Source: Minisyncoccota bacterium
GTDB taxonomy: Bacteria > Patescibacteriota > Minisyncoccia > Phycocordibacterales > PALSA-1337
Length of the DNA stretch: 64,000 nt
Direction: 5' to 3'
Assembly (NCBI GenBank): GCA_041662725.1
Contig: JBAZRX010000004.1
Span: 2,668 to 66,667 of the forward strand
Shown here piece by piece: positions 61,625-64,000 of the stretch. The position numbers and the translations under genes were made by a program. The notes below the pieces were generated by a model that saw only the letters and a program-made list of their open reading frames with translations, searched no databases and was not told where the DNA came from. Position 1 is the stretch's first letter. Every line of letters starts with the position of its first letter.

Positions 61625-62281
61625 TTACTTTAGTTTAAGCCGTTTCAACGCTGATTGAGCTACAGAGGGAGGTATAATATTCTGCAACTCTACAACTTTG
61701 AGTCTGTGGCAATTACGAAGTTTCTTACCGCTTCCACAAGGACAATCCCAGTGACCTTTAATGTTACCTTTCGATAGATATTTCAAATATCTTTCAATAA
61801 TTACTTGTTCCACGCATCCAACCATTTCGCCATAGGCTTCCCATAATCCTTGGGTACCGTGAGATCGTTCTCCCATCGGTCTTTTTTGACCAGCTTCGGC
61901 AAGTGCATGTGAAATTAAAAAATTACGGAGTGGCCCATCTAAAAAGGCTGATATTGAGTTAGATTGAGGATTGATTAACCACTCTTCAGGGACGATTACA
62001 CACAACGTTCCATCGGCATTAGCATGCCATAGCGGATTATTTAGCGGAACTCTTCCACCCAATTCCTTAACAACAGGAATGCTTTTTGGAAAATCATGAG
62101 GTATTTTGACTTCAATCTGAAAACGATCCAGTTCAATTCCATCGTGGATAATTGGGAATCCTCCTCGCAAACAAACAACATTTTTTTCAATCAAAATCCT
62201 TAGATCTTGATATTTCTTTTCTAGATCCTGCCTCAGCTGCTCAAGAAGAGATGGTGATTTTTTGTACCACAACATTATCAT
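61625..62281 (-). CDS. E2 (UBC-fold)-like protein with C-terminal SEC-C zinc motif; third gene of a CBASS-like operon
   Basis: N-terminal helix, then IEVKIPHDFPKSIPVVKEL and NPLWHANADGTLCVIV resembling the E2 P.YPF.PP..F / HPN...G.IC active-site region. C-terminal CPCGSGKKLRNCH SEC-C motif. Confidence 0.4.
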   Translation of the reverse strand: MIMLWYKKSPSLLEQLRQDLEKKYQDLRILIEKNVVCLRGGFPIIHDGIELDRFQIEVKIPHDFPKSIPVVKELGGRVPLNNPLWHANADGTLCVIVPEEWLINPQSNSISAFLDGPLRNFLISHALAEAGQKRPMGERSHGTQGLWEAYGEMVGCVEQVIIERYLKYLSKGNIKGHWDCPCGSGKKLRNCHRLKVVELQNIIPPSVAQSALKRLKLK

Positions 62282-62286
62282 TCCAT

Positions 62287-63183
62287 TTAATCTACCCAGG
62301 GCTTTGTTTTAATTATGGCCGCACTAGAGGCCTGAGTTAATCCAGAAATTCGTTGTGTCTCGTCAATGAGCTTCGATGTTCCGAACACAGATTCCCATCC
62401 CAAGTTTTCAATGGTTTTTAGTGTTGAATTCGCTGCGCTGGAAAGCTCTTGCCAATATTGAGCCATAATATCGGACAAATCATTCCCGTTTGGATTTGCA
62501 GGATCTTCAACAGAAATTGGATCTTTCGTATCACGTATCACTGTCCATACATGTAGCAACTGGTCCTCTAAACTTTTTGAAGATTTACCTTTCAGCAAGT
62601 CTATTATTAATAATTCCCATATGAACTGTTTCAACCGCAACCCCTTTCGCACTTTCCAAAGTTTCAGTAATTTAATTGTATCAGTCACTCCACTACCTCT
62701 CACATGGCTAATGTGTTTATCGAGGTTTGTTTTTAGTCTCGTTTTATCTGCATTCGCCTGAAAAATAAAACAATCCCCATCGTCGCCTTCAACATAGCGT
62801 CCCGGAACAACATCAATATGAAAATCGCTCGCGAGCCCCTGTGCATCCTTACTCTTCAAACGAAGAGCCGAGTTTTTTTGAATTACACAGTATTCTTTTT
62901 CCAAGGCAGATTTGACATTGTTATAAATATCCTCCAGAGAATTGCCTGCCGACATGTCGTCGTTTGGAAAATAACAGATGATATCGAGATCATACATAGC
63001 CGAGATTAAAGTTCCTTTAGCTTTTGAACCACCATAGCGAATTTTTGGTGAACAGTCCTTAAACTTATCTCGGAGCAATTTTTCAACGTCTGCCCGATGT
63101 CCCTGCAATTCTTTCATTTCTTTACTGTCGTCACCTAACTTTTGTAACTCCAGTACAGTGATTAGATACTCATTAGTAGTCAT
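62287..63183 (-). CDS. SMODS/cGAS-DncV-like nucleotidyltransferase (CD-NTase-like)
   Basis: IRYGGSKAKGTLISAMYDLDIICYF is the GS-x(9-13)-DhDh Pol-beta NTase motif. Downstream acidic HIDVVPGRY. Basic KLLKLWK helix as in CD-NTases. Confidence 0.5.
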   Translation of the reverse strand: MTTNEYLITVLELQKLGDDSKEMKELQGHRADVEKLLRDKFKDCSPKIRYGGSKAKGTLISAMYDLDIICYFPNDDMSAGNSLEDIYNNVKSALEKEYCVIQKNSALRLKSKDAQGLASDFHIDVVPGRYVEGDDGDCFIFQANADKTRLKTNLDKHISHVRGSGVTDTIKLLKLWKVRKGLRLKQFIWELLIIDLLKGKSSKSLEDQLLHVWTVIRDTKDPISVEDPANPNGNDLSDIMAQYWQELSSAANSTLKTIENLGWESVFGTSKLIDETQRISGLTQASSAAIIKTKPWVD

Positions 63184-63184
63184 T

Positions 63185-64000
63185 TTAATTATTAATAGTT
63201 AGCTGATAAACAAAACCTCCCTTATGTTTGTCATTGTCATAGACACGCACGGATGGATGAACCTTCGGGAGAAGTTCACGGCCACAAAGAACACCAATCG
63301 GGGCTGGCACAGCCGGAAATAGATCAACTTGAGATATTCCAGGGTGTTCGCGAACAATGGTTGCTATTGCCAGTTGATATTGGTTCCGGAATTCATCCAA
63401 ATCTTGCCTTGTTCGTAAAAAAGTCGGATTCGGGGTCACATTTCCAAGGGTGAGTTCGTAAACAGAATATTCTGCTATGATTTCAGTTGGTAGAGTTACA
63501 TTATCTATTGTTCCACTGAGTGAAAGCAGTAAAGCGACTCCACCACTCTTTGTGCCATTTTGGCGCTTCTGAAAAACATACTGGGCAGGATCTCCAGATG
63601 TTTTCCATGTCCAGTTCTCGGTGTCACGATGTCTTTGGTAGAGATCAAGGGGGACCTTGTTGCTCAATTGGCTCCCCAGATAAATCAGTACAGGAATGGG
63701 CGCAAGTGCAAAAAGTGAAATATGTTTACTTCGCTTGACTTCTCGGCTAGCACCTAATAATTCACGCAACTGCTCCTGAATCGTATCACAAGCTGCATTG
63801 ATAAACGCAGAACTCCCAGTAGGTATCTGTGTCAAATCAATTAACATCCCCTCTTTTGAGAGAGGATAACGCGGCGTTATCGCTTGAAGAATTTGATCAA
63901 AAGGCACCTCAACTGTTTGATCACCAATTCGACTTTTAACATGAAGAATTGATGTTTTTTGTTCGGGACCTAAGCCTGTAACATGATGAATACGCTCTTC
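63185..64000 (-). CDS. SAVED-domain-like protein, C-terminal part; ORF continues upstream beyond the window end
   Basis: KHISLFALAPIPVLIYLGSQL resembles the conserved N-terminal strand of SAVED domains. The frame stays open from 63907 to 64000 on the minus strand with no stop, so the N-terminal (likely effector) domain lies outside the window. The ORF-track start at 63907 is a GTG. Confidence 0.4.
   Translation of the reverse strand, partial: EERIHHVTGLGPEQKTSILHVKSRIGDQTVEVPFDQILQAITPRYPLSKEGMLIDLTQIPTGSSAFINAACDTIQEQLRELLGASREVKRSKHISLFALAPIPVLIYLGSQLSNKVPLDLYQRHRDTENWTWKTSGDPAQYVFQKRQNGTKSGGVALLLSLSGTIDNVTLPTEIIAEYSVYELTLGNVTPNPTFLRTRQDLDEFRNQYQLAIATIVREHPGISQVDLFPAVPAPIGVLCGRELLPKVHPSVRVYDNDKHKGGFVYQLTINN

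Follow-up and report, generated by a model that had tools for sequence, protein, structure and literature searches.

What is encoded by three closely packed genes on a contig from a bacterium of the Candidate Phyla Radiation (CPR), and how would the E2-like protein among their products act on its partner? The contig was analysed over a stretch of 64,000 nt (the window; assembly GCA_041662725.1, contig JBAZRX010000004.1, positions 2,668 to 66,667). All three proteins are named Candidatus Paceibacterota by NCBI, and the taxonomy of the source is the CPR/Patescibacteria phylum Minisyncoccota. A preceding inspection of the letters alone (the sequence-only reading) had proposed a short type II anti-phage signaling system that uses cyclic oligonucleotides (CBASS). 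The locus can be identified, with a probability of approximately 0.85, as an intact CBASS of the E2-only kind (type II-short) whose effector is a Cap5. Within a widespread family it is nothing out of the ordinary; the new aspects are the proposed chemistry between the E2-like protein and a KPW-containing cyclase tail, and a probable link to a LexA-type regulator.

The three open reading frames (ORFs) are tightly packed on the minus strand. Their starts and stops were checked, and the coordinates and gaps given earlier were confirmed: 1 nt (63184) separates the effector and cyclase genes, and 5 nt (62282-62286) separate the cyclase and E2 genes. The latter gap would be 11 nt if the second Met is the start of the E2-like protein, as in the 216-aa call of NCBI (P0121). 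The features are as follows.

63185..64000, minus strand: 3' part of the gene for a Cap5-type effector (residues 116-386 of 386); the SAVED sensor is inside the window, and the HNH domain and the start codon (approximately 64345) are outside.
62287..63183, minus strand: CD-NTase (nucleotidyltransferase resembling cGAS and DncV; SMODS) cyclase of 298 aa (P0241), identified by PADLOC, Pfam, AlphaFold2 (AF2)/Foldseek and invariant residues.
63025-63033, minus strand: GGS motif of the cyclase (translation check and invariant columns).
62983-62991, minus strand: DLD motif of the cyclase (translation check and invariant columns), the GGS-DLD span being 62983..63033.
62812-62814, minus strand: third catalytic Asp of the cyclase, D124 (translation check).
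62287..62304, minus strand: C-terminal tail of the cyclase, K-P-W-V-D-stop; [K/R]-P-W followed by 2-5 residues is family-wide, and no terminal Gly is present here.
61625..62281, minus strand: 218-aa protein (216 aa in the NCBI call), E2-like with a UBC fold and a C-terminal zinc knuckle.
62000..62026, minus strand: putative E2 active site H-x7-C, with His86 at 62024-62026 and Cys94 at 62000-62002 (invariant columns; coordinates checked).
61706..61744, minus strand: SEC-C-type zinc knuckle of the E2-like protein, CPCGSGKKLRNCH, residues 180-192 (Pfam SEC-C, 6.3e-5).

All three proteins encoded in the window matched CBASS-specific PADLOC models with E-values from 1e-61 to 1e-86, in agreement with the short type II CBASS proposed from the letters. 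The models were PDLC00746 ('Effector/Endonuclease', 3e-86, profile positions 148-389 of 389) for the effector fragment, PDLC00803 (1.1e-70, whole length) for the cyclase, and PDLC00861 (6.2e-61) for the E2-like protein.

The effector ORF is stop-free up to base 64000, the window edge, and the fragment matched Pfam SAVED at 1.4e-40, as expected from its earlier description as a SAVED-like protein open at the edge. An N-terminal effector domain had been predicted beyond the edge, and it was found when the sequence was extended. A homologue search with the truncated effector yielded a full-length protein (P0001, 386 aa), encoded on a 67,208-bp contig, with Pfam domains HNH_2 and SAVED, residues 116-386 of which were 100% identical to the fragment. 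In addition, a 1.4-kb Logan contig (sample SRR18595301) was 100% identical to window positions 63069-64000 and reached 516 nt further. The effector start codon and N-terminal domain therefore exist, and the expected domain is an HNH nuclease. P0001 matched solved Cap5 structures (8ysq, 4.6e-57 over residues 14-370; AsCap5 7rwk, 9e-41; LlCap5 7rwm, 4e-37; PsCap5 8fm1). Its zinc (Cys4) and HNH residues C34, C39, H60, N84, C89, C92, and H93 were invariant in 20 homologues. With an N-terminal HNH domain containing a Cys4 zinc site, a C-terminal SAVED domain, a length of 386 aa versus approximately 380-400 aa in the Cap5 family, and a stop 1 nt before the cyclase start, the effector is, as judged from its sequence, an HNH-SAVED Cap5.

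The second gene had been described as a Pol-beta nucleotidyltransferase with motifs of cGAS/DncV-like synthases. GGS (51-53), DLD (65-67), and HIDVVP with D124 were indeed present, and G51, G52, S53, D65, L66, D67, and D124 were invariant in 28 cyclase homologues; the GS...DxD...D residues of a SMODS cyclase are thus intact. Pfam SMODS was matched at 4.6e-6 (27.4 bits versus a gathering cut-off of 26.5), so that the profile searches suggested earlier for SMODS and SAVED were both positive. The AF2 model had a mean predicted local distance difference test score (pLDDT) of 83, and the best Foldseek matches in PDB were SmCdnG (2e-11), CdnC, CdnB, and CdnD, with probability 1.0 and template modeling scores up to 0.70. 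At the sequence level, the phmmer E-value against SmCdnG was 0.44. The protein is predicted from its model to have the CD-NTase fold, and it is called a divergent CD-NTase because its identity to the structural matches is 13-20%.

In the third protein, a UBC-like core and a SEC-C zinc motif had been noticed, and both were found. Pfam SEC-C was matched at 6.3e-5 at residues 180-192. As to the E2/UBC profiles, the PADLOC E2 model gave the strong match mentioned above, and Pfam UQ_con gave only 0.11. In an alignment of 30 E2 homologues, H86 and C94 (H-x7-C, at the position of the UBC active site) and H141 were invariant, as were the knuckle residues C180-P181-C182-G183-S184...C191-H/C. The knuckle matches the C-terminal zinc motif of SecA (1ozb). 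These results indicate that the protein is a UBC fold with a putative catalytic Cys94 and a zinc knuckle, and a stand-alone protein of this kind in the operon is what, by sequence, places the system in type II short. No sequence-level match to SmE2, the E2 of Serratia marcescens, was found for the protein or its family profile; the invariant H86, C94, and H141 are candidate counterparts of H87, C101, and H152 of SmE2. In the window, no gene for an E1 (ThiF-like) or JAB/Cap3 protein was found, nor was a recurrent one observed in the clusters of flanking ORFs of approximately 80 related loci; on the source contig, approximately 2.7 kb past the LexA fragment described below could not be read for this purpose.

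The SEC-C-tagged E2 had been regarded as an uncommon variant. This was not borne out, since the knuckle is family-wide and invariant, and the lineage is large and already covered by CBASS models. Among 1.84 billion cluster representatives searched with a profile, 565 E2 relatives passed E<=1e-30 and 1,919 passed E<=1e-10, so that the SEC-C-bearing E2 marks out a large lineage. When metagenomes were scanned with the E2 knuckle as seed, 80 loci were obtained, and the order Cap5, cyclase of approximately 300 aa, E2 of approximately 220 aa was kept in essentially every locus long enough to judge, with the genes usually overlapping or abutting. The same trio was found in an Alphaproteobacteria metagenome-assembled genome (MAG), and a scan of a genome collection with the cyclase detected one relative only, at 50% identity. 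Among the exceptions, one locus (L049:115-4153) has an IS21-type transposase pair directly upstream of an orphan zinc-knuckle E2, which is a disruption of the cassette by an insertion sequence (IS) element, and another has the order cyclase, E2, and a different SAVED effector. Distant E2 members (24-30% identity) were found on plasmids of Roseivivax, Haliscomenobacter, Vibrio, Carnobacterium, Ligilactobacillus, and others, where they adjoin long nucleotidyltransferases (390-407 aa) and SAVED or S-4TM effectors. What the analysis itself shows is which genes are present and in what order, which domains and conserved catalytic residues they encode, which folds are predicted, and how far the cassette is conserved.

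Two further homologues may be mentioned here. Protein P0392 (637 aa) is a natural fusion of a zinc-knuckle E2 (residues 4-218) and a SAVED domain (341-536), the domain arrangement of which suggests direct coupling of E2 and effector in some systems. On plasmid pRUNSL03 of Runella slithyformis (L088:2824-8102), a SEC-C E2 homologue lies amid three genes for metallo-beta-lactamase-fold metallo-hydrolases and a gene for a large serine protease. No nucleotidyltransferase is annotated there, and the zinc-knuckle E2 lineage may in this case serve a purpose other than CBASS.

The cyclase ends in TKPWVD. In the AF2 model, a helix at residues 275-288 is followed by a disordered tail at residues 289-298 (pLDDT 38), and no beta-sheet is present. 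A [K/R]-P-W motif was observed in all 67 unique tails of related loci, a set that takes in three distant plasmid systems; it was KPW in 36 and RPW in 20, with a few conservative variants. After the aromatic residue of the motif, 66 of the 67 tails have 2-5 variable residues, and 16 of the 67 end in G. The long cyclases of the distant plasmid systems share the motif (TKPWFPGE, VKPWCRS, and PKPWFKQ). These CD-NTases of 391-407 aa, from Roseivivax (L085:2767-3990), Haliscomenobacter (L087:2694-3869), and Vibrio gigantis (L089:2660-3850), end in KPW plus 3-4 residues, and a zinc-knuckle E2 gene follows each of them.

The KPW tail thus co-occurs with the zinc-knuckle E2 lineage even at long cyclases (390-407 aa), where the E2 is 24-30% identical to that in the window. 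Since the distant systems share it, the motif tracks the E2 lineage and not the type of cyclase. This is the strongest hint from the sequences that [K/R]-P-W may be the element recognised by the zinc-knuckle E2. In the searchable literature, no mention was found of a 'TKPW' motif or of a zinc knuckle in CBASS E2 proteins, and the sole match for SEC-C was an unrelated lactococcal protein.

All characterised type II CBASS conjugate via a Gly (or Ala) at the C-terminus of their cyclase (PMC10097602; 10.1101/2022.03.31.486616). Canonical systems with Cap2 (an E1-E2 fusion) and Cap3 (JAB) resemble the present one in ubiquitin-transferase-like regulation via a disordered CD-NTase C-terminal tail (PMC10097602; 10.1101/2022.03.31.486616), but here there is no E1 domain, no JAB gene, and no C-terminal Gly/Ala. 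In the E2-CBASS of Serratia marcescens (SmCdnG, SmE2, and a 2TM-SAVED effector; Yan et al. 2024), the E2 cleaves and covalently links its cyclase via C101, H87, and H152. SmCdnG is 407 aa long, uses Gly406 for linkage, and recruits E2 by a C-terminal helix and a three-stranded sheet, and for SmE2 (approximately 160 aa) no zinc knuckle is described (10.1101/2022.05.25.493364; PMC12948482). The cyclase described here, in contrast, has 298 aa versus approximately 400 aa for the clade-G enzyme, one helix and no sheet, a disordered KPW tail and no terminal Gly, and its effector is a Cap5 instead of 2TM-SAVED. Lacking both the C-terminal Gly and the long clade-G cyclase with a beta-sheet E2-binding motif, the system was not filed under the SmCdnG-SmE2 subtype.

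Closer in composition are the CdnG-Cap5 type II short CBASS of Asticcacaulis sp., Lactococcus lactis, and Vibrio cholerae, which likewise consist of Cap5, a CD-NTase, and a third small protein (PMC8568899; PMC12804361); the matches of the effector to AsCap5 and LlCap5 have been given above. That third gene was left uncharacterised in the two CdnG-Cap5 studies (PMC8568899; PMC12804361), the V. cholerae study not treating it (PMC12804361). In the VcCdnG-type operon on the Vibrio gigantis plasmid, the E2-like third protein is 26% identical to the E2 described here (E = 3e-15) and has the same H-x7-C and a zinc knuckle, and the cyclase there has a KPW tail. The differences from the CdnG-Cap5 systems are that the cyclase in the window is approximately 100 residues shorter (298 versus approximately 396 aa) and resembles the Vibrio type only weakly (27% over 184 aa, E = 2e-5), the regulator is LexA-like, and the host is a CPR bacterium.

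The E2-like protein could instead be a non-catalytic adaptor resembling ubiquitin E2 variants (UEV-like), which would bind the cyclase tail or another partner via its zinc knuckle and perform no covalent chemistry. This is considered unlikely. The missing Gly and E2-binding motif would suit it, in that the E2 chemistry here may differ or be non-covalent. Nevertheless, Cys94, His86, and His141 are invariant in the 30 diverse homologues and kept in the plasmid relatives of 24-30% identity, and a purely structural role needs no invariant Cys at the position of the UBC active site. The three residues may also parallel the catalytic C101, H87, and H152 of the Serratia enzyme (10.1101/2022.05.25.493364). 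A putative enzyme is therefore preferred to an adaptor.

Beyond the window, the Logan contig contains the end of a co-oriented gene whose stop is 4 nt upstream of the effector start (L003:3-167, from approximately 64350 onward). Its last 54 residues (...VALINDKATVKELHCEKNVVVLKPRSKNKVHKPFVLTEDFVIQGVVVTTVRNFD) resemble the C-terminus of S24/LexA peptidases, contain the catalytic-Lys motif ATVKEL, and are 65% identical to the LexA C-terminus of a related locus (L006). In the nearest relative (L084, effector 78% identical), independent gene calls gave the order LexA_DNA_bind plus Peptidase_S24, HNH-SAVED, SMODS, and a 237-aa protein, with the LexA scoring 159 bits for TIGR00498 versus an equivalog cut-off of 111. 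Full LexA genes were found at the same position in the closest relatives:

L084:1992-2618, full LexA gene.
L006:288-953, full LexA gene.
L004:4283-4927, full LexA gene.
L005:4186-4884, full LexA gene.

Upstream regulators were counted in the 39 related loci whose upstream sequence was long enough. A pair of XRE-type helix-turn-helix and HExxH-peptidase genes, the CapH/CapP arrangement, was present in 18, with one of the two genes in 3 more; 5 had an M78/IrrE peptidase module in divergent orientation, in 6 a co-oriented LexA-family gene lay directly upstream, and 7 had none of these. The source locus and its closest relatives fall in the LexA group. Because no operator-like inverted repeats were found upstream of the LexA genes in five relatives at the settings used, no operator is proposed. 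The functional unit probably comprises four genes, judging from these gene neighborhoods, the first being the LexA-family repressor outside the window. Similar placement of a repressor module directly upstream is known for the DNA-damage-responsive regulators CapH/CapP, CapW, and CapK/CapS (10.1101/2022.04.27.489752; PMC11662680; PMC13373217); the source clade differs in having a single LexA-family (S24 self-cleaving) repressor. No paper on LexA-type repressors as CBASS-linked regulators was found in the searchable literature.

Taken together by homology, these components suggest the following course for the signal, the E2 chemistry, the LexA control, and the phage defence. The upstream LexA-family repressor, as suggested by the 54-aa C-terminal fragment and the closest relatives, would probably hold expression of the operon down until it cleaves itself in response to DNA damage or phage replication. 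On infection, the 298-aa CD-NTase would make a cyclic nucleotide, most likely a cyclic dinucleotide such as 3',2'-cyclic GMP-AMP (3',2'-cGAMP). This product is assumed because Cap5 is activated by 3',2'-cGAMP (PMC8568899; PMC12804361), as with the homologous proteins of Asticcacaulis, Lactococcus, Pseudomonas, and Vibrio. By homology to the solved Cap5 proteins, the signal would bind SAVED, Cap5 would oligomerise, and its HNH domain would degrade DNA non-specifically, so that the phage is stopped and the cell lost. The E2, with Cys94, His86, His141, and a structural zinc knuckle, would regulate the cyclase via its disordered C-terminal tail. By analogy with the Serratia E2, this would occur through E1-independent cleavage and covalent attachment, with [K/R]-P-W and not a C-terminal glycine as the recognised element.

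Each taken singly, the proposed E2/KPW-tail chemistry and the LexA gating have about even chances of being correct. A bolder version appears doubtful: that the zinc-knuckle E2 and the [K/R]-P-W tail are a co-evolving pair performing cleavage or conjugation, or tail capture, independently of E1 and glycine and distinct from Cap2/Cap3 and the Serratia E2, and that dedicated LexA gating is added, tied to DNA damage sensed by RecA in a minimal CPR cell.

A further question is whether the cassette belongs to its host. The GC contents of the three genes are 0.396, 0.399, and 0.431 versus 0.372 +/- 0.041 for the 51 ORFs of the window (z = 0.6, 0.7, and 1.45). The segment had been called visibly GC-richer, which is an overstatement for genes 0.6-1.45 standard deviations (SD) above the window mean with host-like tetranucleotides. 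The tetranucleotide correlation of the cassette with the rest of the window was r = 0.83 (mean 0.86 +/- 0.09; 11 of 52 segments lower), versus r = -0.38 to 0.71 for the cassettes of the closest relatives. The cassette is therefore compositionally at home in its host, which argues against both a very recent acquisition and an assembly chimera. Its acquisition by horizontal transfer, also suggested earlier on account of composition, finds no significant support there; a horizontal origin is nevertheless likely from the patchy phyletic distribution of relatives (Alphaproteobacteria MAG, Pseudacidobacterium, Glycocaulis, Phycisphaerae, and plasmids) and the integrases, serine recombinases, and IS elements flanking them.

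These same two features would also fit a recent foreign insertion, or a chimera of assembly or binning, in place of a resident CPR gene set. In the Logan assembly of the same sample, there is one break at 61510 and a second within the cassette, and the neighboring purH has an anomalous GC content of 0.50. Such an origin is somewhat less likely still than the adaptor considered above. The tetranucleotides of the cassette match the window (r = 0.83, mid-distribution) whereas those of its relatives do not, and with a GC content of 0.41 it lies below every related locus from other samples (lowest 0.42; median of related loci 0.55). These values fit a cassette that has long resided in a similar low-GC lineage or came from one. 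The scans for tRNA genes and for Rfam families at the gathering threshold were empty over the whole 64-kb window, giving no tRNA-linked island boundary.

The purH gene itself (AICARFT/IMPCHase plus MGS, 58667-60253, minus strand) has a GC content of 0.504 and a GC3 of 0.489, which exceed those of the other 50 ORFs by more than 3 SD, and only one segment matched the window less well in tetranucleotides than that of purH (r = 0.61). In CPR genomes, genes for de novo purine synthesis are unusual. The gene looks like a foreign acquisition more recent than the CBASS cassette.

That the nucleotidyltransferase is a minimal (MNT/antitoxin) or tRNA-CCA enzyme and the trio no signaling system, as weak matches to NTP_transf_2 (0.0013) and an archaeal CCA enzyme and the JGI label 'tRNA nucleotidyltransferase (CCA-adding enzyme)' on homologues might suggest, was rejected as highly improbable, given the 1e-70 match to a CBASS cyclase model over the whole length, CD-NTases as best structural matches, and obligate linkage to a SAVED-domain effector in approximately 80 loci.

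Several observations weigh against the identification as an intact E2-CBASS or parts of it. The cyclase has only 13-20% identity to any solved CD-NTase, no clade (A-H) or product is assigned to it, and its score is far under the NCBIfam equivalog cut-offs for CBASS cyclases (49.7 bits versus 200). It lacks the C-terminal Gly and the alpha/beta motif for E2 binding that define the cyclase of the characterised E2-CBASS, and there is no experimental study of the zinc-knuckle E2 lineage. The LexA gene of the source genome is known from its C-terminal 54 residues alone. The host-to-cassette junction (61510-61625) is covered by the MAG contig only, since the independent Logan contigs retrieved stop at 61510 and restart at 63069.

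On the downstream side, the cassette is bounded by the following spacer, its neighbors being the phosphatase gene here and the LexA-like gene upstream.

61445..61624, no strand: 180-nt spacer between the E2 stop and an unrelated low-molecular-weight (LMW) phosphatase gene (60995-61444; Pfam LMWPc, 2.5e-20).

No terminator-like site was found on the minus strand of this spacer. In 60900-64000, six terminator-like sites were detected versus 2.0 +/- 1.4 in shuffles, none of them closing the operon on the minus strand, and a promoter scan of the same region showed no excess over shuffles.

The locus itself is routine in that a CBASS operon of this kind is callable by PADLOC-type tools, and defence systems in CPR have already been surveyed (PMC12259885). 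In standard annotation of CPR genomes, however, the system is invisible, since NCBI names the proteins 'SAVED domain-containing', 'nucleotidyltransferase', and 'SEC-C metal-binding domain-containing', no NCBIfam match exists for the E2, and the cyclase is under the cut-offs. It represents an unstudied E2-CBASS branch with hundreds of clusters at 50% identity, in which the E2 always has a zinc knuckle and the cyclase tail is always [K/R]-P-W plus a few residues, in place of the glycine on which every current mechanistic model of cyclase conjugation depends. This lineage offers a direct test of whether 'ubiquitin-like' priming requires a C-terminal glycine. A LexA-type repressor as a built-in regulator would be a fourth kind of DNA-damage switch for CBASS, and ecologically, an abortive-infection system is of interest in an episymbiont whose genome is very small.

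Other features of the window may be recorded. Between purH and the phosphatase gene, a 176-aa ORF (60400-60930, minus strand) had no Pfam or PADLOC match, and a 106-aa ORF (32525-32845, plus strand) with a GC content of 0.47 (z = 2.5) had no Pfam match. Two genes for orotidine monophosphate decarboxylase (pyrF-type; 50251-50976 and 57277-58077, both minus strand) are located within 7 kb, and a phosphoribosyltransferase gene (49516-50250) adjoins. A giant ORF of 2,951 aa (33018-41873, minus strand) contains two Peptidase_S74 (endosialidase-chaperone) domains near its C-terminus; extreme strand skews were observed at 33001-34000 (GC skew +0.35, AT skew -0.21), and several segments of the giant ORF are compositional outliers.

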